Shown in pieces: positions 39,839 through 56,173 of a stretch of DNA of 64,000 bases (the first letter of the stretch is position 1; each line of letters begins with the position of its first letter). This DNA is from Escherichia coli (GTDB lineage: Bacteria; Pseudomonadota; Gammaproteobacteria; Enterobacterales; Enterobacteriaceae): the NCBI RefSeq assembly GCF_024502345.1, contig NZ_JALDNN010000001.1; one strand, written 5' to 3'. The position numbers and the translations under genes were made by a program. The notes beneath the pieces were generated by a model. It made no database searches, was not told the origin of the DNA, and worked only from the letters and a program-made list of their open reading frames with translations.

Positions 39839-40055
39839 AATTTAACCTTCATTTGATGTTGAATTGAACATATCAAAATCAGGCAATTACACAAATATAT
39901 GTACAGGCTCGCACCTGGGCTTGCCTGACTGACCGCAGGCCGGCGACGACAAGGTGGAAAAGTTCGGCGTGTGGCTCTGGCGGCAACGATCCCGCGAAGG
40001 GCGGACGGTGCTTGAGCTGTTGAACGTAAGCATGCGGGCAAACCATCTTGCGCGA

Positions 40056-41217: not shown

Positions 41218-41251
41218 GTAACTCGTTTTCCAATTTTTCTGGAGGTATGAC

Positions 41252-41821
41252 ATGGACATCGATTTCAAGAAGTTGGCTCCCTGGAACTGGTTCAAGAACG
41301 AGCAGCAAGAGCAGCAGACCGCCTCTTCCCTGCCGGTGCAGCGCAATGACCTGCCAGCGGCGAGCGGGCCAGTCAGCCCGATCCTGCAACTGCGTCGGGA
41401 AATCGACCGGCTGTTCGATGACGCATTCCGGGGCTTCGGTTTTCCGGCGTTGAACATGCCGCAGTGGCCATCCGATTGGTCGGGCATGCTGAAGCCGGCC
41501 CTGGACATCCAGGAAACCGACAAGCAGTACAAGATTGCCCTGGAAGTGCCCGGTGTCGAGGAGAAGGACATCCAGATCACCCTCGACAACGACGTGCTGA
41601 TGGTGCGTGGCGAGAAGCGCCAGGAACAGGAGAAGAAGGAAGGTGGCTTCCACCGTGTGGAGCGCTCCTACGGCAGCTTTCAGCGTGCCTTGAACCTGCC
41701 TGACGACGCCAACCAGGATTCGATCAAGGCATCGTTCAAGAACGGGGTGCTCACGGTCACGATCGACAAGCGCGAGGTCAGCGCGCCGAAGCAGGGACGC
41801 TCGATCCCGATCAACGGCTGA
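41252..41821 (+). CDS. small heat-shock protein (Hsp20/alpha-crystallin family)
   Basis: 189-aa ORF with alpha-crystallin domain ...DIQETDKQYKIALEVPGVEEKDIQITLDNDVLMVRGEKRQEQEKKEGGFHRVERSYGSFQRALNLPDDANQDSIKASFKNGVLTVTI. Confidence 0.85.
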   Translation: MDIDFKKLAPWNWFKNEQQEQQTASSLPVQRNDLPAASGPVSPILQLRREIDRLFDDAFRGFGFPALNMPQWPSDWSGMLKPALDIQETDKQYKIALEVPGVEEKDIQITLDNDVLMVRGEKRQEQEKKEGGFHRVERSYGSFQRALNLPDDANQDSIKASFKNGVLTVTIDKREVSAPKQGRSIPING

Positions 41822-41926
41822 CGTCGCCGGCTCGTTCGTCACAAGAAAAACCCGTCCCGAGACGAGGTGTCGCGGCTCGCGATGCCTCGTCGCCTCAACC
41901 TTTTCAACCTTCTAAGGAGCATCAGC

Positions 41927-44809
41927 ATGGCCAGAAAACAATGCCAGGTCTGCGGCCAACCCGCCACCGTGCGGGTGGAAGCCAATCTCAACGGTCGTCA
42001 CAGCACCATGCTGTTGTGCGACGACCATTACCGGCAATTAGTGCGCCAGCAAAAGCGCACCGTTTCGCCGCTGGAAGCCTTGTTCGGTTCGCGCAGCGGC
42101 CTGTTCGAGGACTTCCTCGGCAGTGACTTCTTCCGCATCGGCGACGACGCGACGCCAGTTGCCGCCGATACCGATGACGTGGTCGATGCCTCGTTTGGCG
42201 AGCCCGCCGCCGCAGGTTCGGGTGCGCCGCGCCGTCGCGGCAGTGGGCTGGCCAGCCGCATCAGCGAACAGTCGGAAGCCTTGTTGCAGGAGGCCGCCAA
42301 ACACGCTGCCGAATTTGGCCGCTCCGAGGTGGATACCGAACATCTGCTGCTGGCGCTGGCCGACAGCGACGTGGTCAAGACCATCCTGGGTCAGTTCAAG
42401 ATCAAGGTCGATGACCTCAAGCGGCAGATCGAGTCTGAGGCCAAGCGCGGGGACAAGCCCTTCGAGGGCGAGATCGGCGTGTCGCCGCGCGTGAAGGATG
42501 CGCTCAGCCGCGCCTTCGTGGCCTCCAATGAACTCGGTCATTCTTATGTCGGTCCAGAGCATTTCCTGATTGGTCTGGCCGAGGAAGGCGAAGGGCTGGC
42601 CGCCAACCTGCTGCGCCGCTACGGCCTGACGCCGCAGGCGCTGCGCCAACAGGTCAGCAAGGTGGTCGGCAAGGGCGCCGAGGATGGACGCGCTGAGACG
42701 CCGACCAACACGCCCGAGCTGGATAAATACTCGCGCGACCTCACCAAGATGGCGCGCGACGGCAAGCTCGACCCGGTGATCGGCCGCGCGCAGGAGATCG
42801 AAACCACCATCGAGGTGCTGGCCCGGCGCAAGAAGAACAACCCGGTGCTGATCGGCGAGCCGGGTGTGGGCAAGACCGCCATCGTCGAAGGGCTGGCGCA
42901 GCGCATGGTGGCGGGTGAAGTGCCCGAGACCTTGCGCGACAAGCGCCTGGTGGAACTCAACATCAACGCCATGGTGGCCGGCGCCAAATATCGCGGCGAG
43001 TTCGAGGAGCGCGTGCAGAAGGTGCTGAAGGAGGTGACCGAGCACCAGGGCGAGCTGATTTTGTTCATCGACGAGGTGCACACCATCGTCGGTGCCGGCC
43101 AGGGCGGTGGCGAAGGCGGGCTGGACGTGGCCAACGTATTCAAACCGATGATGGCGCGCGGTGAACTCAACCTGATCGGCGCCACGACGCTGAACGAGTA
43201 CCAGAAATACATCGAGAAGGATGCCGCACTGGAGCGGCGCTTCCAGCCGGTGACGGTGCCCGAGCCGACGGTGGCCCAGACCATCATGATTCTGCGCGGC
43301 CTGCGCGACACCTTCGAGGCGCACCACAAGGTCAGCATCTCCGAGGACGCGATCATCGCGGCGGCCGAGTTGTCCGACCGCTACATCACGGCGCGCTTCC
43401 TGCCGGACAAGGCGATCGACCTGCTCGACCAGGCGGCCGCGCGCGTGAAGCTGTCGGCCACGGCCCGGCCGGTGGCCGTGCAGGAGCTGGAGTCCGAACT
43501 GCACCAGCTGCGGCGTGAACAGGATTACGTGGCCGCGCGCAAGCAGTACGACCAGGCCGCCGAGCTCGGCAAGCGCATCGAAGCCAAGGAGACCGAGCTC
43601 AAGAAGCTCGTCGAGAACTGGGAGCGGGAGCGGGCCTCCGGCAGTGCAGAGGTCAAGGCGGAACACGTGGCGCAGATCGTCTCGCGCCTGACCGGCATCC
43701 CTGTCAACGAGTTGACGGTGGAAGAGCGCGAAAAGCTGCTGCACTTGGAACAACGGCTGCACGAGCGCCTGGTGGGACAAGACGAGGCGGTCCGTGCCGT
43801 GGCCGATGCCGTGCGGCTGTCCCGCGCCGGCCTGCGCGAAGGCAGCAAACCGGTGGCTACCTTCCTGTTTCTGGGCCCGACCGGGGTGGGCAAGACCGAG
43901 CTCGCCAAGGCATTGGCCGAATCGATCTACGGCGATGAGCACGCCCTGTTGCGCATCGACATGTCGGAATATGGCGAACGCCATACCGTGGCGCGGCTGG
44001 TGGGCGCGCCTCCGGGCTATGTCGGTTACGACGAAGGCGGTCAGCTCACCGAGAAGGTGCGGCGCAAGCCCTACAGCGTGCTGCTGCTCGACGAGATCGA
44101 GAAGGCACACCCTGACGTCTACAACATCCTGCTGCAAGTGTTCGACGACGGTCGCCTCACCGACGGCAAGGGCCGGGTGGTGGATTTCACCAACACCATC
44201 ATCATCGCCACGTCCAACCTGGGTTCGGACATCATCCAGCGACGGCTGAAGGCGCGTGGGGCGGCCGACGAGGAGTACGAAAAGACCAAGGCCGAGGTCA
44301 TGGACGTGCTGCGCGGCCACTTCCGGCCCGAGTTCCTCAACCGCATCGACGAGATCATCGTCTTCCATGCGCTGGGTAAGGAGGAGATCCGCCACATCGT
44401 CGGCCTGCAGCTCGATCGCGTGGCGCGCAGCGCCGCCAGCCAGGGCGTGACGCTCACTTTCGATCAGACGCTGATCGACCATTTCGCGGAAGAAGGCTAC
44501 AAACCCGAGTTCGGTGCGCGTGAACTCAAGCGCCTGATCCGCAGCGAGCTGGAAACTGCGCTGGCGCGCGAGATGCTCGGTGGCGGCATCGGCAAGGGCG
44601 ATCACGCCAGCGCACGCTGGGACGACAAGGCCGAACGCGTGGTGTTCGAACGCAAAGAGCCACTGCAGACCCCGGCCGAGCCGGAGCAGCCGGATGCCGC
44701 GAAGGCGACCGAGCCGGAGCAGCCGGATGCCGCGAAGGCGACCGAGACGCCGCACGGCGACGCTGGCAAAGGCTCGCGCAAGAAGAAGTCGGCGAGCGAC
44801 GCATCTTGA
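41927..44809 (+). CDS. clpK: ClpK/ClpG-type stand-alone AAA+ disaggregase (two AAA domains, N-terminal zinc-binding extension)
   Basis: ORF 41867..44809; start at [15 protein letters not shown] after aaggag; Walker A GEPGVGKT / Walker [10 protein letters not shown] (AAA1), GPTGVGKT / [11 protein letters not shown] (AAA2); ClpB-like M-domain. Confidence 0.9.
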
Positions 44810-45060
44810 TGGCGGGCGAGGCTGCCGTGTCCGACCCCAAGGGCCTGGCATGGGCAGCCTCCCTGGCCTCGATCGCGGTGGCGTTCGTGGCCGCGGGTCA
44901 CGCGGTCGTCTACAAGCGTGATCCGCGGTCGACCACGCCGTGGGGGCTGCTCATCAGCGGCGGCACTGCCCTCCCGCTCGCTGGCCATCCGTTTGCGTGA
45001 CGGTGCGGCCCGTCTGTTCACCTGATCCTCTGGCAACTCGACTTTCGAGGAACACAGCCC

Positions 45061-46788
45061 ATGGAAAAAAAGAATCAATGGAATACCGGCTACTGGATCG
45101 TTGCCCTCCTGCTGTTGTTGAGTTTGCAGAGCTACTGGCAGACGGCGAAAACCGTCGAGCCGGTGCCCTACAGCGAGTTCGAGAAGGCGCTGGCCGAGGG
45201 GCGCGTGGCCGAAGTGCTGGTGTCGGATCGTACGGTGACCGGGCGCCTGAAGTCGCCGGACAGCCGGGGCAAGACGACGATCGTGGCAACGAGGGTCGAA
45301 CCCGATCTTGCCGATCGCCTGTCGAAGTACGACGTGCCCTATGCCCGCGTGTTGGAGAGCACCTGGCTGCGCGATGTGCTGTCGTGGATCCTGCCAGCGG
45401 TAGCCTTCTTTGGCGTCTGGTTCTTCCTGTTCCGCCGCTTCGCCGAGAAGCAGGGCATGGGCGGGTTTCTCAACATCGGTAAGAGCCGCGCCAAGGTGTT
45501 CGTGGAAAAGAACACCGGTGTGACGTTCGCCGATGTCGCGGGGGGGGATGAGGCCAAGGCGGAGCTGGTCGAGATCGTCGATTTCCTGAAGAATCCGCAG
45601 GACTATGGCCGTCTCGGGGCGCGCATTCCCAAGGGCGTGTTGCTGGTCGGCCCACCGGGCACCGGCAAGACATTGCTGGCCAAGGCTGTTGTCGGCGAGG
45701 CGGCGGTGCCCTTCTTCTCCATCTCCGGATCAGAGTTTGTCGAGATGTTCGTCGGCGTGGGTGCGGGCCGCACGCGCGGCGTCGGCGGCCACGACGAGAG
45801 CGAGCAGACCCTCAACCAACTGCTCACGGAGATGGACGGCTTCGACAGCTCGGTCGGGCTGATCATCCTCGCCGCCACCAACCGCCCCGAAATCCTCGAC
45901 CAGGCTCTGCTGCGTGCCGGCCGCTTCGACCGCCAGGTGCTGGTGGACCGGCCCGACAAGAAGGGGCGGCTGGACATCCTGAAGGTTCATGTCAAGAAGG
46001 TGACGCTGGCCCAGGATGTAGACCTCGAACAGGTAGCAGCACTGACCACGGGCTTTTCCGGCGCGGACCTCGCCAATAGGGTCAACAAGGCGGCGCTGGC
46101 GGCGAGGAGACGCCGTGCGTCCGCCGTGGAATTGCAGGACTTCACCGCGACCATCGAGCGCATCGTGGCGGGCCTGGAAAAGAAGAGCCGCGTGCTCAAT
46201 CCCAAGGAGCGGGAAACCGTGGCCCATCACGAGATGGGCCATGCGCTGGTGGCGCTGGCGCTGCCCGAAACCGACCCCGTACACAAGATCTCGATCATCC
46301 CGCGCGGCATCGGCGCGCTGGGCTACACCTTGCAGCGCCCCACCGAAGACCGCTTCCTGATGACGCGTACCGATCTCGAGCACAAGATCGCCGTACTGCT
46401 GGGCGGGCGTGCCGCCGAAAAGCTGGTGTTCGGCGAGTTGTCTACCGGGGCGGCGGACGATCTGGCGCGAGCCACCGACATCGCCCGCGACATGATCACC
46501 CGCTTTGGCATGGACGAGGGCCTGGGCTACATCGCCTTCGAGGCGCAGCGGCCCCGCTTTCTCGATACACCGGAACTGGCCCACGGCGGTTGCCGGGTGG
46601 CCGAATCGACCCAGGCGCGCATCGATCAGGCTATCCGCGACATCGTGATGGGCGTGTTCGAGCGCGCCTACCGGATTCTCGACATCTACCGCGCGGTGCT
46701 GGAGCGCTGCGCGCGCGAGCTGCTGGCGCGGGAAGCGCTCGACGAAAGCGATATCCGTCAATTGACTCAAGGACTTGTTCGGAACTGA
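45061..46788 (+). CDS. ftsH: FtsH-family membrane AAA+ zinc metalloprotease (island copy); apparent in-frame gap removing Walker B
   Basis: 575-aa ORF; two N-terminal TM segments, Walker [34 protein letters not shown], zinc site HEMGHAL; only GRTRGVG between GVGA and GHDE. Confidence 0.8.
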
Positions 46789-46875
46789 AAACAGTAGTAG
46801 GTGCCATTCAGAGTAAACCGACGGCTCTGTTCAGTGCGTCATCCAATTCGTCGGCATTGTTCAAGGAGAACCGAT

Positions 46876-47334
46876 ATGTCTGCATTGACTCCGTGGGACC
46901 CCTTCCGGGAACTGGATGAATTGCAAAACCGCCTGGCGACGATGTTCGGACGAATACCCCAGCGACAGGGCGCCCGTACCGGCAACGAAGCCATGACCAC
47001 GGCGGACTGGGCACCAATGGCGGACATCAGCGAGGATGAGAACGCATTCCTCCTCAAGCTGGATCTGCCGGAGGTCCCCAAGGATGCCGTGCGCGTCAGC
47101 GCGGAAAACGGTGTGCTCACCATCAGCGGCGAGCGCAAACTGGAAAAAGAGGAGCAGGGCAAGAAGTTCCACCGCATCGAACGTGCGTATGGCCGCTTTG
47201 TGCGCAGCTTTGTCTTGCCTGACAACGTTGATCCGACCAAGGTGACGGCTTCCATGAAAGACGGCGTACTGGAAGTGCGGCTTGTCAAGGCCGAGCAAGC
47301 CAAACCGAAACAGATTGAAATCTCAGTCAACTAA
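46876..47334 (+). CDS. small heat-shock protein (Hsp20 family), second copy
   Basis: ORF 46801..47334; start placed at MSALTPWDPFRELDELQNRLATMF after aaggag; alpha-crystallin core ...FLLKLDLPEVPKDAVRVSAENGVLTISGERK... Confidence 0.85.
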   Translation: MSALTPWDPFRELDELQNRLATMFGRIPQRQGARTGNEAMTTADWAPMADISEDENAFLLKLDLPEVPKDAVRVSAENGVLTISGERKLEKEEQGKKFHRIERAYGRFVRSFVLPDNVDPTKVTASMKDGVLEVRLVKAEQAKPKQIEISVN

Positions 47335-47356
47335 CTTCAATCAGGAGCCCAAGATC

Positions 47357-48271
47357 ATGAATATCAAACAGCCACAATACACCTTCTCCGCACTTGCCCT
47401 GGCGGTCGTCGTCGGACTGAGCGGACCGGCTCTGGCCCAATCGGCGGCAGGTTCTAGCCCAGGTGCTGCAGCCCCCTCTGCCGCATCCAAGGCGGCACAG
47501 CCACAAGTAGATGACAAGGCCGCCCGGGAAGCCGATAAAAAGCGTGCCGAGCTCACTCAAGACGCCATCACGGCGCTCACCAAGACCCAGGAGGCTTTGA
47601 CCCTCCTTGATGCAAAGAAGACCAAGGAGGCGCTTGCTGCGCTGGAACTGGCCAGCGGAAAGCTGGAACTGGTATTGGCACGTGACGCCAAACTTGCTTT
47701 GGCGCCGGTCGATGTACGCGTCATCACCCACGATATCCACGCCAACGTGGAATCGGTAAAGAAAGCGGTCAAGTTGTCTCGGGAGTTGTTGGGTGATGGC
47801 GAGGTGCAAAAGGCCCGGCCCATCGTTGCCAATCTGGCCAGCGAAATCGTAATCCAAACCGACAACCTTCCGATGGCAACGTACCCGGCAGCGATCAAGT
47901 CGGCCGCACGGCTCATCGACAGCGGCAAGATCGACAACGCCAAAGCGGAACTCGCCCGAGCACTGAACACGCTGGTGGTGACCTCGGTCGCCTTTCCTCT
48001 GCCCGTGCTACGGGCCGAAGCCGCGATGGCAAAAGCTGAAAAGCTGGCCGAGACCGACAGGCGCGATGCCAAGCAGAACGAGGAGCTCAGCACCTTGCTG
48101 TCGTCCGTGCGCACGGAGATCGAGATGGCGCAGATCCTGGGTTATGGCAAGAAGGCGGACTTCAAACCCATTTTCGATCAGGTGAAGTCCATTGAGCAAA
48201 AGTCGGCTGGTGGCAAAAGCGGCAAGGGATGGTTCGACGAGTTGAAGACGCGCATCCAAAAGCTGTTTTGA
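47357..48271 (+). CDS. yfdX: YfdX-family periplasmic protein (tLST YfdX1-like)
   Basis: ORF 47282..48271; start at MNIKQPQYTFSALALAVVVGLSGPALAQ (signal peptide); Ala/Lys-rich helical protein; position in tLST order. Confidence 0.65.
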   Translation: MNIKQPQYTFSALALAVVVGLSGPALAQSAAGSSPGAAAPSAASKAAQPQVDDKAAREADKKRAELTQDAITALTKTQEALTLLDAKKTKEALAALELASGKLELVLARDAKLALAPVDVRVITHDIHANVESVKKAVKLSRELLGDGEVQKARPIVANLASEIVIQTDNLPMATYPAAIKSAARLIDSGKIDNAKAELARALNTLVVTSVAFPLPVLRAEAAMAKAEKLAETDRRDAKQNEELSTLLSSVRTEIEMAQILGYGKKADFKPIFDQVKSIEQKSAGGKSGKGWFDELKTRIQKLF

Positions 48272-48373
48272 GGTGATGAAGGGGCTGACTGCTCTGTCGG
48301 TCAGTCTCGCGATGTTCGCATTCAGCCCCAACAGATTCGCCTATTTTCACTATCTCATACGAGGCATATCACC

Positions 48374-49261
48374 ATGAATGAGCAAACACCGAATCCCAAT
48401 GCGACGAACGAAGGAATAAACGAACAAGCCGCGGTAAGCAGCCTTCCTGTCAGTCCAGAGTCCAAGCCTGAAGTCGTCACGGAGGTACAGCCTGAGGTTC
48501 AGAAAGAAACGGACTCGCAGGCGGCAGACAAACGTAAACAAGTCCTCGATGAGGCAGTCTCGGCCTTGTCGCTGACCAAATCAGCGCTGGCCGCACTTGA
48601 CGGCAAGGACACTGCACGCGCATTGGCAACGCTGGCCGAAGTGACGGGAAAGCTGGAGCTGATCGTCGCGCGCGAACCCACGCTCGCCCTGGCCGGCGTT
48701 GATGTGCGCACCATCGTGCACGACTTGTTCGCCAACACGGAAACCATTGAGGCGATGACCGACGAGGCGCTGGATGCCCTCAAACATGGCGAGGTGCAAC
48801 AGGCTCGCCACGTGCTGGCTTTGCTGGCCAGTGAAATCGTGATCACGGTCACCAACATCCCTTTGGCGTCCTATCCCGCAGCCGTGAAGGCAGTCGTGCC
48901 GCTGATCGATCAGGGCAAGATCGAAGAAGCCAAAGCCGCGCTGCAGTCAGCGCTCAGCACGCTGGTCGAGGAGCGCAGCGTGCTTCCGCTGCCCGTCCTG
49001 CGTGCGAAGCTGCTCCTGAAGCGCGCCGAGCCTCTGGTAGAAGATGGTCAGCGCAGCGAAGCATCCAATGAGCGCCTGGAGACATTGTTGAACGAAGCCC
49101 GGCAGCAGTTGGAAATGGCAGAACTGCTGGGCTATGGAAAAAGGAAGGACTTTGAGCCCCTGTACGCTGAACTCAAGAAAATCAAGGAAAAGACGGGAGG
49201 GGGAGGCTTCGGAAAAGGCTGGCTCGATGAAGTCAAGGCAAAACTGTCCAGGTTGTTCTGA
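48374..49261 (+). CDS. yfdX: YfdX-family protein paralogue (tLST YfdX2-like); no obvious signal peptide
   Basis: 295-aa ORF sharing C-terminal motifs with the preceding gene (…LPLPVLRA…AEKLAE…ILGYGKK.DF.P…KGW.DE.K..…LF). Confidence 0.6.
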   Translation: MNEQTPNPNATNEGINEQAAVSSLPVSPESKPEVVTEVQPEVQKETDSQAADKRKQVLDEAVSALSLTKSALAALDGKDTARALATLAEVTGKLELIVAREPTLALAGVDVRTIVHDLFANTETIEAMTDEALDALKHGEVQQARHVLALLASEIVITVTNIPLASYPAAVKAVVPLIDQGKIEEAKAALQSALSTLVEERSVLPLPVLRAKLLLKRAEPLVEDGQRSEASNERLETLLNEARQQLEMAELLGYGKRKDFEPLYAELKKIKEKTGGGGFGKGWLDEVKAKLSRLF

Positions 49262-49270
49262 AACCGCTGG

Positions 49271-49295
49271 AGAGGGGGCGCATAGTGCCCCCTCT
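49271..49295 (+). terminator. GC-rich hairpin downstream of yfdX2 (possible intrinsic terminator; U-tract not immediately adjacent)
   Basis: agagggggc-gcatagt-gccccctct perfect 9-bp stem, followed ~20 nt later by tttgattttttattttg. Confidence 0.35.
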
Positions 49296-49350
49296 CTTGT
49301 CCCATGAGTGTTTGATTTTTTATTTTGTATAGATCTTTAGGAGATATTGC

Positions 49351-49962
49351 ATGAACACAGACACCATCACCGATTCCAGTGCGGATGACCCCACCAAAGC
49401 ACTGTGTTCGCTTAGCCAAAATTGGTGGCTTTTTGTGCTGCGCGGTGTCTTGGCATTGATTTTTGCAGCCCTCGCGTTCTGGATGCCACAATCGGCTCTG
49501 TTGGCCATGACCATCATGTTCGGCGCATTTTCCTTGGTCAATGGCGCGTTCAACTTGTTTGCAGCGGTGCGCCATATCCAGAAAAAAGAGCGCTGGGGCT
49601 GGTTGTTGTTCAGCGGCATTGTCGGCATACTTACGGGCGTCGTCGTCCTGGTTGCTCCTTGGGTCGCCACGATAGTCTTGGCTTCTTTTTTATGGGCTAG
49701 CGTGGGCTTCTGGGCGATTTTCACCGGTGTGCTGGAGATATCTGCCGCCGTTCGGCTGCGTCGGGAAATCAAGGGTGAAATCTGGCTTGCCCTCAGTGGA
49801 CTGCTCTCGATTATCCTTGGTGCTATCGTCTTGTGGATATTTTTTACCCGTCCGGTCGAGTCATTCGTGGCCGCAGGCTGGCTGTTGGGTTTCCATGCGG
49901 CAGTCTATGGCGTCACGCTTTTGTTCTTGAGTTGGAGTCTTCGCAAAACGCGCCTGGGGTAA
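49351..49962 (+). CDS. hdeD: HdeD-family acid-resistance membrane protein
   Basis: 203-aa ORF with ~6 hydrophobic segments (…WWLFVLRGVLALIFAALAFWMPQSALLAMTIMFGAFSLVNGAFNLFAAV…); tLST order. Confidence 0.75.
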   Translation: MNTDTITDSSADDPTKALCSLSQNWWLFVLRGVLALIFAALAFWMPQSALLAMTIMFGAFSLVNGAFNLFAAVRHIQKKERWGWLLFSGIVGILTGVVVLVAPWVATIVLASFLWASVGFWAIFTGVLEISAAVRLRREIKGEIWLALSGLLSIILGAIVLWIFFTRPVESFVAAGWLLGFHAAVYGVTLLFLSWSLRKTRLG

Positions 49963-50041
49963 GAGCGTGCCAAACCAAAATCTATGGATATGAGCATCCT
50001 CGATTCATGCCTCCATAGAAATGACATCGAAGGAGTCATAC

Positions 50042-51187
50042 ATGCAGATACAATATAGCTATCGAGCTATCGACAAAGAGTTTCATGAACCTTGGCAGAG
50101 AGCTTTGGGAAATGTGATCGAGCACGCCCTCAAGCCATTGCTCGACAAACACACTAAAGATTCAGCGCGACTTCAAATCGTCCTTGATCGCGACAAGATC
50201 AAGCGGCAATTTCTGGCCAGTGGCTATATGCACCTGCCCGGCAAAAAGATTGTCAGCGTTACTGCATCACATGACGAGCTGACGCCCCTCGCGCAGATGC
50301 TCGCACAGTCGTTGTTCCGTCAGGCCAAGAAGCATTTTGACCGACTGCATGCTCAGGATCAAATCAAGCGCAAAGCACGACGCGAGCGCTTGCGCGAGCT
50401 CAAGGTGCGGATTGCCGCAAAACCCGCATCAGCCGCCCATGAGGCCGAGGTGACCCGAATGCCTCTACTGTCGAAACTTGAGGCTGTCGCAAGGCGTGAG
50501 CTGGCTTATCTGCGGGCCGTCGGCGATTTACCGCGCGATTATCCGACGCTGCGCGACGTGGTGGATGAAGCGATTGTCCGAGCTAAGGTGGAATGGCAAT
50601 CCGTGCCGGGGGAAAAAGAGGCTTACACCGGTCTTTTGAAGCATCTGTTCGCCGTCCTGGATAACGAAGTGGCAAGCAGCCGGCAATTTGGCGAATTCGT
50701 TTCTCTGGACGCGCCGGTCGAACCGGATGCCCAAGACGTGGCCGAGGCCATGGTGGAAGAGGAAATCTTCGAATTTTATCAGCACGATGACACACTCAAG
50801 CTGGCCGATATTTTCGCTGGCAGTCAGCATCCCGATGTCGCAACGATCGCGGAACAGGAGGAGCTGATTGATCGGTCGAGCGAGTTCGCTTTTGCATTTG
50901 ACCTGCTGAAGGACATGCCGCGTTTGTGGCGGCGCATTTTTCTGCTTATCCGTGTGGACGGGCTGAATGCCAGCAGCGTCTCTGAAATCCTGCTGATTCC
51001 TAGTAAGGAAGATGCTGTCCAAAGGTGGCTCATGCAGGCCGAAGCATTCATCGCTGCTCATCTGGAAGAGGCCGGAGTAAGCAAAAACGGGAACGATTGG
51101 CTCCAAGGCGTTGATTGGCCGGCATTGTCTGTGACCCGAAGCGAGGCAGCCTCACTGTGGTCCAAGGAGGCGAACCATGAAGAATGA
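50042..51187 (+). CDS. hypothetical protein (tLST orf11); C-terminal segment resembles sigma-70 region 4 HTH
   Basis: ORF 50021..51187; ATG at 50042 preceded by aggag; C-terminal LKDMPRLWRRIFLLIRVDGLNASSVSEILLIPSKEDAVQRWLMQAEAFIAAHL. Confidence 0.5.
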   Translation: MQIQYSYRAIDKEFHEPWQRALGNVIEHALKPLLDKHTKDSARLQIVLDRDKIKRQFLASGYMHLPGKKIVSVTASHDELTPLAQMLAQSLFRQAKKHFDRLHAQDQIKRKARRERLRELKVRIAAKPASAAHEAEVTRMPLLSKLEAVARRELAYLRAVGDLPRDYPTLRDVVDEAIVRAKVEWQSVPGEKEAYTGLLKHLFAVLDNEVASSRQFGEFVSLDAPVEPDAQDVAEAMVEEEIFEFYQHDDTLKLADIFAGSQHPDVATIAEQEELIDRSSEFAFAFDLLKDMPRLWRRIFLLIRVDGLNASSVSEILLIPSKEDAVQRWLMQAEAFIAAHLEEAGVSKNGNDWLQGVDWPALSVTRSEAASLWSKEANHEE

Positions 51188-51617
51188 TCTTCACCTCGTC
51201 TGCCCGCATTGCCAGTCCATCAACCGCGTACCGACTGCGAAGCTATCGGAACATCCCAACTGTGGCCGCTGCCAGCAGCCCTTGTTCACGGGCGAGCCCA
51301 TCGAGTTGACCACGGCGACGTTCTCGCGCCACGTGGAGCGCAGCGATCTGCCGCTGCTGGTCGATTTCTGGGCGCCATGGTGCGGGCCGTGCAAGATGAT
51401 GGCGCCACAGTTCCAGCAAGCGGCGCACCAGCTCGAACCGACGATCCGGCTGGCGAAGGTGAATACCGAGGCTGAGCCCCACCTGGCCGCGCAGTTCGGT
51501 ATCCGCAGCATCCCGACGCTCGCCCTGTTCCAGGGTGGGCGGGAGATCGCCCGTCAGGCCGGCGTGATGGGCGCGCAGGACATCGTGCGCTGGACGTCGA
51601 CGCAAGTGGGACGCTGA
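51177..51617 (+). CDS. thioredoxin with N-terminal zinc-finger extension (Trx2-like)
   Basis: 146-aa ORF: CPHCQSINRV...CGRCQQPLF zinc ribbon and active site WAPWCGPCKMMAP. Confidence 0.85.
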   Translation: MKNDLHLVCPHCQSINRVPTAKLSEHPNCGRCQQPLFTGEPIELTTATFSRHVERSDLPLLVDFWAPWCGPCKMMAPQFQQAAHQLEPTIRLAKVNTEAEPHLAAQFGIRSIPTLALFQGGREIARQAGVMGAQDIVRWTSTQVGR

Positions 51618-51620
51618 CCG

Positions 51621-53336
51621 ATGCAGGGCTTGCTCGGCACTACGCTAATCCTGCTGGCGGCTTGCAGCCTGGCGGCGATGGCGACGGCGGCGTTCAGAGT
51701 GCCCGCCTTGCTGGGGTATCTCTCTGTCGGCGTTGTACTGGGCCCCTCAGTCATCGGCGTGATCGCGCCGGGGGAGACGCTGAGCTTTCTGTCCGAGCTG
51801 GGCGTGGCGCTGCTGTTGTTCATGGTCGGACTGGAATTCTCCCTCGGAGACTTCTGGCTCGCCCGCAGGACGGTGCTGATGGCGGGCGCTCTGCAGATGA
51901 TCGCCGTGGCCCCGCCGCTGATCCTGCTATTGATGTGGCTGGGGCAGCCCGGCCAGAGCGCCGCGCTGCTCGGCACTGCGGCGGCCATGTCGTCCACGGC
52001 GCTGGTCAGCCGACAACTGGCCGACCAAGGCGAGCTCACCACCCGCCACGGACGCAGTGCCATCGCCGTGCTGGTCTTTCAGGACCTGGCCAGCGTGCCC
52101 CTGCTGGCCTTGCTGGCGATCTGGGCGCGCGGCGACTCGCCGAAGATCGAGCATGTGCTGCTCGAAGTATTCGGTGTGCTGCTGCTGTTCGCGGCAGCGG
52201 CCCTCGCCTCGCGCCGTCTGTTGCATGGCCTGCTGGGCTGGGTGGCGCGGCGGGGCCACGAGGAATCGTTCGTGCTCGTCTCCTTGTGCGTGGTGGTGGC
52301 CGCCGCCGCCGCTGCGCACGCGGTCGGCGTATCTGCCGCCCTGGGGGCCTTCCTCGCCGGGATGGTGCTGGGCGAGAGCGACTTCCGGCACCACATGGAA
52401 AGCCACCTCAGGCCGTTTCGCGATGTGTTGTCGGGCGTGTTCTTCGTGACCATCGGCCTGCAACTGGACGCAGCACAGATTCTTTCGGCACCGCTGGCGG
52501 TGCTGGCGTGGCTGGTGGTGCTGGTACCGGTCAAGATCCTGCTCAATACACTGGCCTTGCGGGCGACGCGCCTGTCCGCCCTCGATGCCTGGCGCACGGG
52601 CATAGCGTTGGGGCACGGCGGCGAGTTCGCCCTGCTGTTGTTGGGCACGGTCTTGCAGCAGCATCTGATCCCCGCGACCGTCGTCCAACCCATGCTGGTC
52701 GCGCTGGTGCTCAGCATGGCCCTGGCACCGCTACTGATCCGCCATCACGATGTACTTGCCCGGTTCTTGAGCCGCACCGGCGGCGTCATTCAGCCACCCC
52801 AGGCTGAAGAAGTCGAGATCGCCGCGCAGACGACGCGATATCGAGACCATGTCATCATTTGCGGCGCGGGCGAGCTTGGCCTGACAGTCAGCGAGATTCT
52901 TCGCCACGCCGGCGTGGCGCATCTGCTGCTGGAGGCGGACGCGCAGAAGGTCGAGGCCGCGCGTGCCGCCGGCGCGCCGGTGTTCCATGCCGATGCCAGT
53001 CGGCCCGATACCTTGCTGGCTGCCGGCTTGACGCATGCACACTTGGTGGTGCTGACGTTCGCCCATGCCCAGCAAGCGTTGCGCATCGCCCAGGCGATTG
53101 CCGAGCACCGTCCGGCGCTGACCTTGTGGGTGTCATGCAGAAGTACGACCGCGGCCGATGCATTTCGCGCCATGCCCAACGTGCGCGTGTATCAGCAATC
53201 CTTTGCCGCAGCTATTGGGCTGGCGGAACAGGTGATGTCGACGCTTGGCATGTCGACCGAGCTGATTGAAGGACACATCAGCGCAATGCGCCGCCGTCTC
53301 GACAGCAGCCGTTTTCCAGGGAGTTCATCGTCATGA
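51621..53336 (+). CDS. kefB: KefB-like monovalent cation:proton antiporter-2 (CPA2) with C-terminal TrkA-N/RCK domain
   Basis: 571-aa ORF; 12-13 TM segments then Rossmann-type VIICGAGELG... regulatory domain. Confidence 0.8.
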   Translation: MQGLLGTTLILLAACSLAAMATAAFRVPALLGYLSVGVVLGPSVIGVIAPGETLSFLSELGVALLLFMVGLEFSLGDFWLARRTVLMAGALQMIAVAPPLILLLMWLGQPGQSAALLGTAAAMSSTALVSRQLADQGELTTRHGRSAIAVLVFQDLASVPLLALLAIWARGDSPKIEHVLLEVFGVLLLFAAAALASRRLLHGLLGWVARRGHEESFVLVSLCVVVAAAAAAHAVGVSAALGAFLAGMVLGESDFRHHMESHLRPFRDVLSGVFFVTIGLQLDAAQILSAPLAVLAWLVVLVPVKILLNTLALRATRLSALDAWRTGIALGHGGEFALLLLGTVLQQHLIPATVVQPMLVALVLSMALAPLLIRHHDVLARFLSRTGGVIQPPQAEEVEIAAQTTRYRDHVIICGAGELGLTVSEILRHAGVAHLLLEADAQKVEAARAAGAPVFHADASRPDTLLAAGLTHAHLVVLTFAHAQQALRIAQAIAEHRPALTLWVSCRSTTAADAFRAMPNVRVYQQSFAAAIGLAEQVMSTLGMSTELIEGHISAMRRRLDSSRFPGSSSS

Positions 53337-53830
53337 AATCAACACGCCTTAACCCATTTCAGGTCTTACGTGACCAATTGGCCATCATGAGTTTTTACGA
53401 GCGCTTCGAGCAGGTCGTCGCGCTCGTGCTGTCGGCGGTGATCGCCGTCATCATCGTGGTGTCGCTGTTCCAGCTCATCTCCATCGTCTTCACGCTGCTG
53501 GTTCTAGATGCCTTCAATCCCCTGGACCACGAGGTATTCCAGAGCGTGTTCGGCATGATCATGACGCTCTTGATCGCGATGGAGTTCAAGCATTCCATCG
53601 TGCGCGTGGCGCTGCGTCGGGACAGCATCATCCAGGTCAAGACGGTGGTCCTGATCGCGCTGATCGCACTCTCCCGCAAGTTCGTGATCCTCGACTCCAA
53701 CGCGAGCCCCGCAAAGATAGCCGCGCTGGCTAGCGCCACGCTGGCTCTGGGTGCGACCTACTGGCTGCTGCGCAAGCGCGGCGACCGCGCCGCCGAGACC
53801 TCTGAGCATGACCCGTCATCATCCCAGTGA
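53333..53830 (+). CDS. psiE: PsiE-family inner-membrane protein
   Basis: 165-aa ORF, four hydrophobic segments; position in tLST order; overlaps upstream and downstream genes. Confidence 0.6.
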   Translation: MKSTRLNPFQVLRDQLAIMSFYERFEQVVALVLSAVIAVIIVVSLFQLISIVFTLLVLDAFNPLDHEVFQSVFGMIMTLLIAMEFKHSIVRVALRRDSIIQVKTVVLIALIALSRKFVILDSNASPAKIAALASATLALGATYWLLRKRGDRAAETSEHDPSSSQ

Positions 53831-54773
53831 TCCGCGCACGGCGCTCTTGCAACACCGCTGGCTCAACCGCCTGCAGACCGGGCTGTTGGTCCTGACCCTG
53901 GTCGGGATCGCAGCCGCAGCAGGGAGACTGCCGTTTGGGGAAGGCTGCCTGTGGCTCGCGCTGTTTGCCATTGCAGGTGCGTTGCTGCTGGAACCGGTAG
54001 CCGCGTCGGCGCTGAGCTTGCGCCTGTACCGCGTACGGGCCTTGCACCCGCAAGAAGCCCACAAGATGTGGGCCCTATTGCGCGAGCTGCCCGCCCGTGC
54101 CGGTTTGCCCGCCACGCCGGTGCCGCACTATGTGCCCAGTGCCGTCGTCAACGCCTTCGCCACCGGATCGAAGCAGGAGGCATCGATCGCCCTCACCGAT
54201 GGCCTGCTGCGCAGCCTGAGCCCACGCGAGCTGGCGGGTGTGCTCGTGCACGAGGTCGCGCACATCGCTAATGAGGATCTGCGTGTCATGGGGCTGGCGG
54301 ATTCCGACAGTCGCCTCACGAGCCTACTGGCCCTTATGGGACAGATCGCGATCCAGCTCAGCCTGCCCGCGCAGCTGGTTGGCGCGGCGGAGGTCTATTG
54401 GCCTGGTCTATTGTTATTGGCCGCATCGCCCCAGCTGGCCCTGCTCGCACAGCTCGGCTTGTCTCGCGTGCGTGAGTTCGACGCTGACCGCCTTGCGGCG
54501 GAACTGACTGGCGACCCGCAGGGGCTGGCGTCCGTGCTGGCAAAAATCGAGCGGGTCAGCCGCTCCTGGCGTGCCTGGCTATGGCCGGGATGGGGCAATC
54601 CCGAGCACTCCTGCTTGCGTACGCGTCCGGCAACGCAAGAGCGCATTGCACGCCTGCTGACGTTGGCGCCTGGGCCAGCATCAGCGTTGCCACTCCGCGC
54701 GCCCCATTTTTTGCCGGAATCCGCTTTGGCGACGCGCCCACCGAGCTGGCGCCCGAGCGGGCTGTGGCGCTGA
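53808..54773 (+). CDS. M48-family zinc metalloprotease (HtpX-like)
   Basis: ORF 53751..54773; start placed at MTRHHPSDPRTALLQHRWLNRL; HExxH motif VLVHEVAHIANEDL; N-terminal TM segments. Confidence 0.75.
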   Translation: MTRHHPSDPRTALLQHRWLNRLQTGLLVLTLVGIAAAAGRLPFGEGCLWLALFAIAGALLLEPVAASALSLRLYRVRALHPQEAHKMWALLRELPARAGLPATPVPHYVPSAVVNAFATGSKQEASIALTDGLLRSLSPRELAGVLVHEVAHIANEDLRVMGLADSDSRLTSLLALMGQIAIQLSLPAQLVGAAEVYWPGLLLLAASPQLALLAQLGLSRVREFDADRLAAELTGDPQGLASVLAKIERVSRSWRAWLWPGWGNPEHSCLRTRPATQERIARLLTLAPGPASALPLRAPHFLPESALATRPPSWRPSGLWR

Positions 54774-54797
54774 TTGCCCATCAACAGGAGACGTCTC

Positions 54798-55949
54798 ATG
54801 GCCTATCTCGACCCGTACCAACGCCCCGCGCCGGACCGCTTCGTCCGGCGCGGGCTCTTCATCACCGCCTGCATTGCCGCGCTCATGCTGCTGTGGCAGT
54901 TTCTGCCCGCCATCGAGGCATGGTTCAGTCCGCGCGAGGCAGCAGAACGCACCGTGATGGCGCGTGGCGATCTGGCGGCGGACGAGAAAACCACCATCGA
55001 ACTGTTCGAAAAATCGCGCGCCTCGGTGGTCTACATCACCACCGCGCAATTAGTACGCGATGTCTGGACGCGCAACGTGTTCTCCGTGCCGCGCGGCACT
55101 GGCTCGGGCTTCATCTGGGACGACGCCGGCCACGTCGTCACCAACTTCCACGTCATCCAGGGCGCGTCCGAAGCCACCGTCAAACTGGCCGACGGCCGCG
55201 ACTACCAGGCCGCGCTGGTGGGGATGAGCCCCGCGCACGACATCGCCGTGCTCAAGATCGGCGTCGGTTTCAAGCGCCCGCCGGCCGTGCCGGTCGGCAC
55301 CAGTGCCGACCTCAAGGTGGGTCAGAAGGTGTTCGCTATCGGCAACCCCTTCGGCCTGGACTGGACGCTCACCACAGGTATCGTCTCCGCGCTCGACCGC
55401 TCGTTGCCGGGAGAAGCGGGCGGCCCGGCCATCGATCACCTGATCCAGACCGACGCCGCCATCAACCCCGGCAATTCCGGTGGCCCGCTGCTCGATTCGG
55501 CTGGGCGGCTGATCGGAATCAATACCGCCATCTACAGTCCGTCTGGCGCCTCGGCCGGCATAGGCTTTGCGGTGCCGGTCGATACCGTCATGCGCGTGGT
55601 GCCGCAACTCATAAAGACCGGCAAGTACATCCGTCCGGCACTGGGCATCGAGGTGGATGAGCAGATCAACGCGCGTCTGCAGGCGCTGACCGGCAGTAAG
55701 GGCGTATTCGTATTGCGCGTGACGCCGGGCTCGGCGGCGCACAGGGCCGGGCTCGTCGGCGTCGAGGTCACCGCAGGCGGCATCGTGCCCGGCGATCGCG
55801 TTATCAGCATCGACGGTATCGCCGTCGACGACGTCACCACATTACAGGCCCGGCTAGACGACAAGAACGTTGGAGATGTTGTGGTCTTGTTAGTGGAGCG
55901 GGCCGGCAAGACTCGCGAGATGCTTGTGGAACTACAACCGGGAGTTTGA
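54798..55949 (+). CDS. degP: DegP/HtrA-family periplasmic serine protease with single PDZ domain
   Basis: ORF 54774..55949; start at MAYLDPYQRP after aggag; catalytic H (TNFHVI), D (DIAVLKI), S (GNSGGPLL); C-terminal PDZ. Confidence 0.85.
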   Translation: MAYLDPYQRPAPDRFVRRGLFITACIAALMLLWQFLPAIEAWFSPREAAERTVMARGDLAADEKTTIELFEKSRASVVYITTAQLVRDVWTRNVFSVPRGTGSGFIWDDAGHVVTNFHVIQGASEATVKLADGRDYQAALVGMSPAHDIAVLKIGVGFKRPPAVPVGTSADLKVGQKVFAIGNPFGLDWTLTTGIVSALDRSLPGEAGGPAIDHLIQTDAAINPGNSGGPLLDSAGRLIGINTAIYSPSGASAGIGFAVPVDTVMRVVPQLIKTGKYIRPALGIEVDEQINARLQALTGSKGVFVLRVTPGSAAHRAGLVGVEVTAGGIVPGDRVISIDGIAVDDVTTLQARLDDKNVGDVVVLLVERAGKTREMLVELQPGV

Positions 55950-56173
55950 TGGAAAGTGGGTCATGGATCTGCACAGCGAAGCAGCCAAGCGACTTCAGCC
56001 TTGCGCCGAACTACGAGCCCTAGCTAGGGATGGTCTGAAGTAGCCCTGTATTTCCGGCTGACTTCAGCCACTGCTGATTTTGAAAGCGGTGAACCGATCA
56101 AAAACGATCGGATCACCCGCTCATTTCGGTGCTTTCAGCCGTCGCGAGCACCTTGCGACGGCCATTTTCCGCA

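Follow-up and report, generated by a model that had tools for sequence, protein, structure and literature searches.

The window, that is, the whole 64,000-nucleotide stretch of E. coli DNA analysed here, was identified as the tLST/LHR heat-resistance island and showed 99.9% identity to E. coli chromosomal copies. With this island, Enterobacteriaceae of food-borne and hospital origin withstand 60 °C and chlorine, and orf11 is its sole gene without an assigned function. The orf11 coding sequence occupies 50042..51187 on the + strand (381 codons and a stop codon), as supported by the ORF list, RefSeq entry WP_001166995.1 ('hypothetical protein') and an alignment of homologues running from residue 1. 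A 388-aa version starting at ATG 50021 (ORF 50021..51187) was rejected, as this ATG has no Shine-Dalgarno sequence and homologues begin at the second Met; the Met at 50042 is the first residue in all 49 aligned homologues. The 381-aa start was preferred because the Shine-Dalgarno sequence AAGGAG (50030..50035, + strand), recognized by sequence reading, lies 6 nt upstream of its ATG (50042).

The upstream neighbour of orf11 is hdeD-GI (DUF308; 49351..49962, + strand; ORF list and RefSeq). Scanning of the 79-nt gap between hdeD-GI and orf11 for a sigma-70-type promoter or a terminator gave no match, and the terminator-like hairpins found around orf11 were located exclusively within coding sequence. 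On the downstream side, the start of trx-GI, encoding a Zn-ribbon thioredoxin (51177..51617, + strand), overlaps the end of orf11 by 11 nt (orf11 stop codon, 51185-51187), and by sequence reading the trx-GI Shine-Dalgarno sequence AAGGAGG (51164-51170, + strand) lies inside orf11. These coordinates agree with a preliminary description of this DNA, which had placed a 381-aa orf11 between hdeD and the thioredoxin gene with an 11-nt overlap with the latter. The translational coupling that it suggested for the pair gains support from conservation of the overlap, which recurs as 11 nt in tLST-type loci (L013-L021) and is also present in a split locus (L010, see below).

Reviews put the identity of orf11 to anything known at <30% (PMC8290217), and all database names examined for its product were hypothetical except for one JGI/IMG entry, RaiA. 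PADLOC and PHROGs scans gave no match for Orf11, and therefore Orf11 is not a member of a known defence or phage family.

Distribution and neighbourhood of the orf11 family

The family profile matched 131 clusters (50% identity) at E<=1e-30 and 465 clusters at E<=1e-10, conservation extending over the full length, and the family spans Proteobacteria to Actinobacteria, Chloroflexota, Nitrospirae and Acidobacteria. Published proteomics of island-carrying E. coli detected 11 island proteins, 'a hypothetical protein' among them, and found the host proteome hardly altered beyond the island proteins (PMC7010813); the hypothetical protein is probably Orf11. Given the 131 and 465 clusters matching the profile, and the island 'hypothetical protein' seen by proteomics, orf11 is not a chance ORF.

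Deletion of orf11 left heat survival, chlorine survival and lipid oxidation unchanged (PMC8407380), so any role of Orf11 in Enterobacteriaceae is subtle, or visible only in recovery or dormancy assays. The missing phenotype would also suit a dispensable passenger without current function in Enterobacteriaceae, carried along with the island, as would the interruption of the LHR2 copy by orfC/orfD (PMC5383660) and the truncated forms common in databases. We regard a passenger as extremely improbable. Full-length copies are dominant, forming a cluster of 5909 members against 131-418 members for the fragments (P0022, P0024 and P0029), and at least 80% of the gene is present in 144 of the 151 E. 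coli genomes with a match and in 252 of 279 plasmid records; the probable detection of the protein and the conservation of the family across the above phyla argue in the same direction.

Around Orf11 homologues in 80 genome loci, genes for KefB (36 loci), Clp (35, in 26 of them directly upstream), Trx (34), sHSP (34), HdeD (32) and FtsH (31) were found. HdeD-like genes adjoin the homologue in 21/80 loci, thioredoxin is located directly downstream in 9/80, and Balon-like genes adjoin it in 6/80. The sole PDB match of the Balon-like neighbour was Balon MSMEG_1130. Balon genes occur most often beside RaiA genes, and both proteins have been seen on one ribosome (PMC10901736); the gene association was also noted elsewhere (PMC6514570). 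Many family copies are located mid-operon with gaps of 12-80 nt, and solitary copies beside housekeeping genes have conserved sigma-32-type promoters in front of them.

Domain organization of Orf11

The AF2 model of Orf11 had an overall pLDDT of 77.8, with residues 1-104 (50042..50353, + strand) mostly at 80-92, and its N-terminal elements were E2-8, H12-37, E43-51, E56-65, E69-77 and H80-125, giving the order beta1-alpha1-beta2-beta3-beta4-alpha2. The top 19 Foldseek matches (E 1e-4 to 2.3e-2) all belonged to the HPF/RaiA family; target-normalised TM scores were 0.65-0.83 for the eight at E<=1e-3, and the best matches were HPF/YfiA structures. The family profile aligned with HPF 4v8h_AX among PDB sequences (E=1.6e-4, profile positions 16-109 against 10-98 of 101) and with E. 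coli HPF (E=4.6e-4), and the N-terminal profile scored 25 bits against E. coli HPF and 21 bits against E. coli RaiA. In Pfam searches of individual members, PF02482 Ribosomal_S30AE was found at E<=1e-3 in 14/50 homologues (best 1.7e-8). The window protein itself generated no S30AE match in Pfam at E<=10 and no TIGR00741 match, the best fused members reached 23.9 and 21 bits on TIGR00741, under the 40.9 cut-off, and a phmmer search of PDB with Orf11 gave HPF 9sda at a sub-threshold E=0.38. Sub-threshold single-sequence matches in Pfam, NCBIfam and PDB phmmer searches were not counted as evidence alone. Residues 1 to ~104 of Orf11 are thus predicted, with support at the family level, to adopt the HPF/RaiA fold. 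The HPF/RaiA-like N-terminus proposed in the preliminary description is borne out at this level by Pfam, the profile and Foldseek, and the strand-helix-strand-strand-helix order given there is replaced by the beta-alpha-beta-beta-beta-alpha order predicted by AF2, which is canonical for HPF.

Helix alpha2 continues as a basic segment at residues 105-125 (50354..50416, + strand; KRKARRERLRELK), in which alignment and column counts showed R110 to be invariant and R113 and R116 to be nearly invariant among homologues. The net charge of residues 80-125 is +9 in Orf11 and +7.9 on average in the family. The alpha2 signature of the family, L.RQ.KKH.DRL, matches that of HPF (LARQLTKHKDKL), so that the fold and the basic signature ending helix alpha2 are common to Orf11 and HPF/RaiA (YfiA). 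The two also share a linkage to stress and, in some loci of the Orf11 family and often for RaiA, a Balon-like gene alongside. Orf11 differs from HPF/RaiA in scoring under the curated family thresholds, in the 20-residue arginine-rich prolongation of alpha2, in its location outside the rpoN-hpf operon context, and in the sigma module of 220 residues that follows, at a place left empty in short HPF and taken by a dimerisation domain in long HPF. No Pfam domain corresponding to the long-HPF C-terminal dimerisation domain was found in Orf11 or in 50 members.

The remainder of the protein resembles an extracytoplasmic function (ECF) sigma factor. The sigma2-like domain (residues 126-214; 50417..50683, + strand) contains RRELAYLRAxGDLP..DVVDEA, corresponding to regions 2.1-2.2, and LLKxLFxxIDREVAASR, corresponding to regions 2.3/2.4. 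An acidic linker of net charge -13 follows (residues 215-265; 50684..50836, + strand), with the nearly invariant core AEAMVEEExYEFYQPDD; it aligns to the RpoE linker DAIEAENFE and is predicted to be disordered (AF2 pLDDT <50 at 217-225, 239-254 and 258-264). The sigma4-like domain (residues 266-345; 50837..51076, + strand) carries LPxxWRR as region 4.1 and a helix-turn-helix of which the recognition helix is non-canonical and unconserved. The C-terminal tail (residues 346-381 and the stop codon; 51077..51187, + strand; pLDDT 28-45) carries the trx-GI ribosome-binding site; in the alignment it is limited to tLST-type copies and missing from most homologues.

The single-sequence matches of Orf11 to Pfam Sigma70_r4_2 (E=0.065), PRK12528 (ECF sigma, E=0.016) and PhyR (E=0.027) were sub-threshold, and the window protein is under the curated sigma thresholds TIGR02937, PF08281 and PF04542. 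It generated no TIGR02937 match, the best fused member scored 26.7 bits (cut-off 42.9), and no Sigma70_r2 match was listed by Pfam in any of 50 members. Member-wise Pfam searches at E<=1e-3 found Sigma70_r4_2 in 17/50 homologues and PhyR_sigma-like (PF22233) in 16/50, the family profile matched the ECF sigmas AlgU (8e-6) and RpoE (5e-5) among PDB sequences, and hhalign against RpoE gave E=5.7e-6 over residues 29-184. The C-terminal two thirds of Orf11 appears to have a sigma fold, and a sigma4 helix-turn-helix domain is present in the family. Judged at the family level by sequence, residues 126-345 appear to constitute a complete but divergent ECF sigma module made up of sigma2, the acidic linker and sigma4. 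The earlier proposal of a sigma-70 region-4-like C-terminus therefore stands as to sigma4 similarity, which family Pfam and profile matches support, and needs correction as to place and extent: the similarity lies at residues ~287-339 with ~40 residues following, and a whole ECF module at 126-345, instead of region 4 alone, appears to be present. Between them, the family Pfam and profile searches and Foldseek returned sigma70_r4 and S30AE matches and no unrelated fold.

Stand-alone relatives and conservation of the sigma-like module

Sigma genes related to the C-terminal module also occur on their own. Seven of eight stand-alone relatives scanned passed TIGR02937 over the whole model length (46.7-72.3 bits; cut-off 42.9), and hhalign of Orf11 126-348 against them gave E=4e-46 (100%). 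The linker motif FYQPDED is kept in these relatives without HPF. They are found in stress clusters (with PsiE and GrpE, with DUF308, and beside Balon), some without any HPF gene. One metagenomic contig (L010/L011) carries separate genes for an HPF-like protein, a sigma and a Zn-ribbon thioredoxin in the order of the fusion, with overlaps of 4 nt (HPF-like/sigma) and 8 nt (sigma/thioredoxin), and the HPF-like gene ends in the basic helix segment. This was the one clear split HPF/sigma pair among the stand-alone relatives, the other contigs being too short or having no HPF gene. Because the full length is conserved and the split form preserves the gene order of the fusion, with overlaps, the fusion appears to be functional, not accidental.

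Conservation is unevenly distributed along the fused proteins. Positions conserved in at least 90% were most frequent in the linker core (residues 229-256; 12/28, the highest of any segment) and numbered 8/24 in region 2.2 and 6/20 in region 4.1; none was found in the specificity loop (0/8) or the recognition helix (0/22). Regions 2.1-2.2 and 4.1 of sigma, and likewise the linker, exceed the HPF core in conservation, a pattern that would also fit re-use of the HPF fold for another purpose. RpoE R171/R173/R176/R178 align to Q/W/Q/E in Orf11. The fused members differ from ECF sigmas (RpoE, AlgU, SigW, EcfG) in failing TIGR02937 and having no Sigma70_r2 match, in lacking the region 2.3/2.4 Trp and the recognition-helix Arg residues, both kept in stand-alone relatives, in the change of the region 2.2 Gln to Asp, and in an acidic sigma4 (net charge about -6). 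They also differ in having, in the searches run, no adjacent classical anti-sigma gene (none conserved among the neighbours in the 80 genome loci) and no conserved target promoter. The latter search, a crude one for ECF-type promoters, used 5-mer/4-mer pairs with 14-19 nt spacing in 227 upstream regions (31 sequence clusters); its best sense motifs were shared by 8 clusters, whereas the antisense control reached 9, and these motifs were all GC-rich noise.

These data bear on the possibility that Orf11 is a genuine ECF sigma, with the HPF-fold domain acting as a cis anti-sigma or a sensor of idle ribosomes and the released sigma targeting proteostasis promoters. Genes fused to or co-transcribed with ECF sigmas typically encode their regulators, and the 4-nt overlap of the split HPF/sigma pair conforms to this pattern. 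The ordinary-looking stand-alone ECF relatives, which pass the ECF model over its whole length and of which some lie in stress clusters without HPF, favour a real transcriptional role of the module as judged from sequence. Nevertheless, we consider a genuine sigma rather unlikely for the fused members, all of which are under the sigma cut-offs: the residues for promoter recognition are lost, with no recognition-helix position conserved, no shared promoter motif rose above the antisense control, and many copies lie mid-operon behind gaps of 12-80 nt. The knockout leaves island resistance unreduced, and the host proteome is almost unchanged by the island. That module 2 (residues 126-345) drives promoter-specific initiation is likewise doubtful.

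A degenerate promoter-reading surface would also be expected of a decoy in the style of PhyR, a sigma mimic that captures an anti-sigma or the coupled Zn-ribbon thioredoxin and so works as a redox or stress switch. The sigma-like (anti-anti-sigma) domain of PhyR is itself sigma-derived with a degenerate DNA-reading surface, the PhyR family (PRK09191) is among the best NCBIfam matches of nearly all fused members, Pfam PF22233 matches 16/50 members, and the start/stop overlap with the thioredoxin gene is conserved in tLST-type loci and the split locus. Unlike PhyR, however, Orf11 has no receiver domain, an HPF domain being fused instead, and no NepR-like gene was noticed among the neighbours; thioredoxin is directly downstream in just 9/80 loci, and the PhyR matches cover sigma4 only and are no better than those to ordinary ECF sigmas. 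Such a decoy is very improbable.

Proposed function of the fusion and previously reported HPF chimeras

In characterised ECF sigmas, region 2.2 contacts the beta-prime clamp helices of core RNA polymerase, region 4.1 the beta flap, and the linker the RNA exit channel. The argument from conservation to core binding rests on these textbook roles. Our preferred reading, held tentatively and at slightly less than even confidence, is that Orf11 is a two-module stress protein composed of an HPF/RaiA-type domain with a basic helix (module 1, residues 1-125) and a divergent ECF sigma (module 2, residues 126-345). Under proteotoxic stress, Orf11 would be made together with the island chaperones and proteases; this step is proposed because the family is co-located with chaperones and proteases across phyla and solitary copies have sigma-32-type promoters. 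Module 1 would dock in the 30S decoding region like HPF/RaiA, silencing and protecting idle ribosomes, and in some lineages may act together with the Balon-like A-site factor encoded next door. Module 2 would serve mainly as a handle for RNA polymerase or for a partner, through which transcription is linked to, or silenced along with, translation; it would not be the promoter-specific sigma of the island. It is read as a handle because the putative core-binding segments (2.2, 4.1 and the linker) are kept and the promoter-reading surface is unconserved. By analogy with HPF, module 1 probably binds ribosomes, and module 2 may bind the RNA polymerase core, for which our confidence is somewhat below even.

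In E. coli, Orf11 would be an accessory, heat and chlorine resistance as read from killing curves being independent of it in the published knockout. The effect of hibernation factors typically becomes visible during recovery and prolonged dormancy rather than in kill curves. An HPF-type assignment suggests why survival assays of the orf11 knockout saw nothing.

If the HPF domain sits on idle ribosomes and the sigma module on the RNA polymerase core, polymerase could be parked on hibernating ribosomes during severe heat, or, equivalently, sigma availability could be gated by vacant ribosomes, making Orf11 a ribosome-occupancy-sensing sigma factor. We hold this ribosome-polymerase link with low confidence; it fits because the fusion is conserved and a split gene pair occurs, the putative core-binding segments are conserved, and an invariant acidic linker faces an invariant basic helix. 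In heat-shock gene clusters of many phyla, the family couples a fold that silences ribosomes in HPF with one that binds RNA polymerase in sigma factors, and the fusion could reveal a new way to coordinate the shutdown of translation and transcription.

The HPF-sigma architecture itself is not new. A 2025 preprint (bioRxiv 10.1101/2025.11.04.686544) describes chimeric isoforms of HPF in which the dimerisation domain is missing and Csp, SigE or CBS domains are fused, horizontally spread and often beside Balon, and reports a 'SigE-HPF fusion' on E. coli plasmid pEc78. The pEc78 fusion very probably belongs to the same protein family as Orf11: it likewise has an HPF N-domain without the long-HPF C-terminal domain, joined to a SigE-like part, on Enterobacteriaceae plasmids. 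Orf11 fits the description of a chimeric HPF, consisting of an HPF and a SigE-like part, being mobile (carried by 279 plasmid records and 151 E. coli genomes) and coexisting with canonical hpf; both hpf and raiA are native to E. coli K-12. The passages on SigE-HPF draw no link to the heat-resistance island or orf11 and give no experiment on this fusion; nor do they describe the complete sigma2 and sigma4 module, the split three-gene form or the conservation pattern.

The preprint (10.1101/2025.11.04.686544) reads the chimeras as pure hibernation factors, in which the sigma-derived part would replace the long-HPF dimerisation domain in ribosome pairing or stabilisation of binding, with no role at the polymerase. 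The lack of a detectable long-HPF C-terminal domain in Orf11 and 50 members is in line with this, as are archaeal Hib/HibA, which show that a protein fusing HPF with a further module can still function in hibernation. We nevertheless consider a pure hibernation role for Orf11 unlikely. A part that only spaced or dimerised would hardly be expected to surpass the HPF core in conservation, as regions 2.1-2.2 and 4.1 of sigma and the linker do; stand-alone ECF relatives that have no HPF retain FYQPDED, and the sigma module also occurs beside Balon without HPF. The partner in known HPF fusions is a CBS domain or a duplicated C-terminal domain, whereas in Orf11 it is an ECF sigma.

Domain architecture of Orf11

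The 1146 bases of orf11 (50042-51187, + strand) showed 99.9% identity to E. coli chromosomal copies, in which the annotated gene order is hsp20, clpK, ftsH, hsp20-GI, yfdX1, yfdX2, hdeD-GI, 'hypothetical protein', trx-GI, kefB-GI, psiE-GI, htpX and S1C protease. The longest ORF covers 50021..51187 (+); because an AAGGAG lies 6 nt 5′ of the ATG at 50042 (+) and all homologues in alignment A1 start at this Met, Orf11 was assigned 381 residues. The trx-GI gene starts at 51177 (+) with its AAGGAGG inside orf11 (51164-51170, +), confirming the 11-nt overlap of the two genes noted in the preliminary description, and the overlap was found again in the tLST-type loci L013-L021. A second Orf11 allele, about 70% identical (P0021 cluster, 160 members; L017-L021), is carried by Pseudomonas species, P. 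aeruginosa among them, and by Pantoea and E. coli, and keeps both the 381-aa length and the trx overlap.

As a single sequence, Orf11 generated only weak hits: Sigma70_r4_2 in Pfam (E=0.065), the ECF sigma PRK12528 (E=0.016), PhyR (E=0.027) and an HPF chain in PDB (E=0.38). A search of 5.8 billion proteins yielded full-length relatives with identities as low as 35%; several had precomputed S30AE, Sigma70_r4_2 or PhyR_sigma-like matches, and some had JGI names such as 'RaiA / sigma24'. When the 50 full-length relatives from which A1 was built were scanned singly against Pfam (E<=1e-3), Sigma70_r4_2 was matched in 17, PhyR_sigma-like in 16 and Ribosomal_S30AE in 14 (best 1.7e-8). Against PDB sequences, the A1 profile matched the ECF sigmas AlgU (8.4e-6) and RpoE (5e-5), and HPF/RaiA proteins from end to end (4v8h_AX, 1.6e-4; E. 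coli HPF, 4.6e-4).

The AlphaFold model (pLDDT 77.8) has four parts: a beta-alpha-beta-beta-beta-alpha unit whose last helix has 45 residues (2-125), then two helical domains (129-214 and 266-343) with a disordered stretch (about 215-265) between them. In PDB, the best 19 Foldseek matches of this model came without exception from the HPF/RaiA family (E from 1e-4); target-normalised TM was 0.65-0.83 for the eight matches at E<=1e-3, with Vibrio HPF 4hei at the top. Full-length ECF sigmas ranked next, at a probability of about 0.9. The S30AE matches, the profile match to HPF and the Foldseek ranking bear out, at family level, the HPF/RaiA-like N-terminus that had been suspected from the sequence alone. 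The sigma-70 region-4-like C-terminus proposed with it exists, as the Sigma70_r4_2 matches indicate, as one part of what appears to be a whole ECF sigma and not as region 4 alone. The sigma part scored 14.7 against EcfG-type RpoE bound to NepR (5uxx_C; 146/163), 12.6 against SigW-RsiW (142), 11.5 against CnrH-CnrY (134) and 9.3 against PhyR (113). A PhyR-like decoy, to which the PhyR_sigma-like matches would conform, is a very improbable reading. That Orf11 joins an HPF-type domain to an ECF sigma module is nearly certain.

Stand-alone sigma relatives and the split form

An exhaustive HMM search with the Orf11 family profile over 1.84 billion cluster representatives retrieved 465 clusters at E<=1e-10, of which 131 reached E<=1e-30. 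The majority were 340-390 aa and aligned end to end with the profile, and proteins of 220-290 aa matched only positions ~125-350. Seven of eight scanned stand-alone relatives, which lack the HPF part, passed the NCBI sigma70-ECF model TIGR02937 over its full length (46.7-72.3 bits, cut-off 42.9); the eighth, P0198, scored 38.5 bits. None of the fused proteins reached any curated sigma or HPF threshold, and Orf11 was therefore termed 'divergent' and assigned to neither curated family. In profile-profile comparison, Orf11 126-348 matched the stand-alone proteins (alignment A3) at 100% probability (E=4e-46), these matched E. coli RpoE at 98% (E=9e-14), and Orf11 126-348 matched RpoE directly at 85% (E=5.7e-6, covering RpoE 29-184 of 191). 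At the level of sequence profiles, the stand-alone proteins thus provide a transitive link from Orf11 to RpoE.

The stand-alone clade in A3 comprises P0183, P0197, P0212, P0213, P0186, P0198, P0220, P0176, P0190, P0199 and P0180, and is also represented by L047 1900-2706 and L091 1715-2551. Its linker carries an unusual, strongly conserved motif, IPETPP...GxEIxxFYQPDEDLKLED, and Gln of region 2.2 is replaced by Asp. Its members are found among stress genes. DUF308 precedes P0197 at locus L009, where a candidate BON/OsmY-like ORF (1-363), read from translation as another osmotic-stress neighbour, lies 5′ of both; a stand-alone relative was also located before PsiE and GrpE.

On two metagenomic contigs (L010 and L011), three genes overlap serially in the order of the HPF domain, sigma module and trx-GI in the window: the gene for a 117-aa HPF-like protein with a clear S30AE match shares its last 4 nt with the beginning of the gene for stand-alone sigma P0212, which overlaps a Zn-ribbon thioredoxin gene by 8 nt. 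As the Orf11 N-terminal profile covered the separate HPF-like protein from end to end, arginine-rich tail included (42.7 bits), the fusion junction was placed at about residue 120-128.

Conservation and possible function

Sigma factors bind the beta-prime clamp helices through region 2.2 and the beta flap through region 4.1, and in ECF sigmas the linker runs through the RNA exit channel. Among 37 sequences <80% identical, positions conserved at >=90% numbered 12/28 in the linker core (229-256), 8/24 in region 2.2, 6/20 in region 4.1 and 4/21 in the basic extension, with 0/8 in the specificity loop and 0/22 in the recognition helix. RpoE DNA-contacting R171, R173, R176 and R178 correspond to Q, W, Q and E in Orf11 (profile alignment), and stand-alone relatives retain a Trp in region 2.3/2.4 and the recognition-helix 'AR', both of which are gone from the fused ones. 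Charge is segregated along the family proteins (mean net charge about +3 in the HPF core, +8 in residues 80-125, -4 in sigma2, -14 in the linker and -6 in sigma4), and the sigma4 recognition helix carries about -2 versus +3 in RpoE. Given the established roles of region 2.2, region 4.1 and the linker, we infer that core binding may have been kept while promoter reading is not conserved.

The best reading, held tentatively at somewhat under even odds, is that Orf11 would be a stress-induced HPF-type ribosome binder with a polymerase-core-binding sigma handle. That Orf11 is a true sigma factor regulated by its HPF-fold domain, suggested by the stand-alone relatives that pass TIGR02937 and disfavoured by the variable recognition helix, is unlikely, at about one chance in four; slightly less likely still is a pure hibernation factor with sigma-derived filler, at odds with the conserved linker core and region 2.2.

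Reviews put the identity of the orf11 product to proteins of known function at <30% (PMC8290217). When 13 island genes were deleted singly in E. coli MG1655 lacZ::LHR, heat or chlorine survival depended only on sHsp20, clpK, sHspGI, pscA, pscB, hdeD and kefB, and lipid oxidation was unchanged in the orf11 deletion (PMC8407380). In LHR2, a mechanosensitive-channel gene and another ORF interrupt orf11 (PMC5383660). Proteomics detected 11 island proteins, 'a hypothetical protein' among them, and whole-cell-extract differences were almost exclusively island-encoded proteins (PMC7010813). These data argue against Orf11 as a sigma factor required for the island's own expression in E. coli, which is disfavoured; they say nothing on recovery or dormancy phenotypes. 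A passenger gene, which the deletion results would suit, is the least probable reading of all.

'Chimeric HPF isoforms' without the long-HPF dimerisation domain, fused to Csp, SigE or CBS domains, spread horizontally and often beside Balon, a ribosome hibernation factor, are described in the available part of a bioRxiv preprint from November 2025 (10.1101/2025.11.04.686544); in that part, 'a SigE-HPF fusion' is named on E. coli plasmid pEc78 without experiment on it, and this fusion resembles Orf11 in its described architecture. We found orf11 in 279 plasmid records, 31 from Escherichia, and the database names consulted for it are 'hypothetical protein' save one IMG 'RaiA' label. New here, beyond the architecture sighted in the preprint, are the tie of this architecture to tLST orf11, the sigma part as an apparently complete ECF module with bona fide ECF sigmas as nearest relatives, the split three-gene form, the predicted sigma-32-type promoters, the conservation pattern and the stress-cluster context in numbers.

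Genomic context and upstream elements

One genome per species was scanned, giving 80 loci from Alpha-, Beta- and Gammaproteobacteria, Gaiellaceae, Kocuria, Chloroflexota, Nitrospirae, Blastocatellia, Calditrichota and others, with neighbours called by tblastn with island proteins. Neighbours were a Clp ATPase at 35 loci (26 directly upstream on the same strand), KefB / Na-H exchanger at 36, Zn-ribbon thioredoxin at 34 (nine directly downstream), sHSP at 34, HdeD at 32 (21 adjacent), FtsH at 31, YfdX at 19, a cardiolipin-synthase-like PLD at nine (seven directly downstream) and an eRF1-like baeRF at seven (six adjacent). The sole PDB match of the baeRF neighbour (Pfam baeRF_family10) was Balon MSMEG_1130. 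Such Balon-like eRF1-family genes lie beside Orf11 homologues at L002 (8750-9964), L004 (9156-10598), L026, L027, L030, L031 and L022, and at L091 one (440-1630) immediately precedes a stand-alone sigma relative without HPF domain. Balon genes are commonest beside RaiA genes, and both proteins have been seen together on the ribosome (PMC10901736); the baeRF-HPF association was noted earlier (PMC6514570).

Some homologues are solitary chromosomal genes beside glmS or an ADP-heptose epimerase gene. Six solitary loci, from Sedimenticola and related Gammaproteobacteria, share CTTGAA-N13-16-CC(C/T)CAT about 60 nt upstream in otherwise unalignable sequence (L052, about 590-650; L064, L069, L074, L062 and L044, about 5915-5975), in the form CTTGAAttg-N10-CCTCAT[A/G]T, with the variant CTTGAT...CCCCATAT in L044. 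By its sequence, this motif is a predicted sigma-32-type heat-shock promoter. A crude search of 227 upstream regions (31 clusters) found no shared bipartite promoter above the antisense control, and the 79-nt hdeD-orf11 gap in the window held no sigma-70-type promoter or terminator match.

In the alphaproteobacterial island version, a GC-rich hairpin (e.g. GGCCGGCGCGATGACGGTCGCGCCGGCC, GGCCCGGCGCGATATCGGTCGCGCCGGACC, GGCCGCGGGGCAGCATCCGCCCCGCGGCC) lies between the clp stop and the orf11 homologue, within the 60-100 nt directly before its start (about 5900-5990; L048, L057, L060, L066, L070, L079 and L085). Its stem varies compensatorily and is followed by no T-run; it may serve to stabilise the mRNA or as an attenuator. 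Inside orf11, a terminator-like hairpin (50916-50944, +; TGCCGCGTTTGTGGCGGCG then CATTTTTCTG) falls exactly where the invariant region 4.1 motif PRLWRRIF is encoded and is probably just a consequence of the coding sequence. GC content is 0.59-0.66 in the island (40000-56000) versus 0.50-0.57 in the flanks, and the hdeD-orf11 stretch (48-52 kb; 0.56-0.60) lies below the remainder of the island. Three tandem Rfam naRNA4 copies (CssrE, RF02564; 77 nt each, 17-nt gaps, 65-70 bits) at 18731-18995 (-) form a REP-like nucleoid-associated RNA array with no relation to the island.
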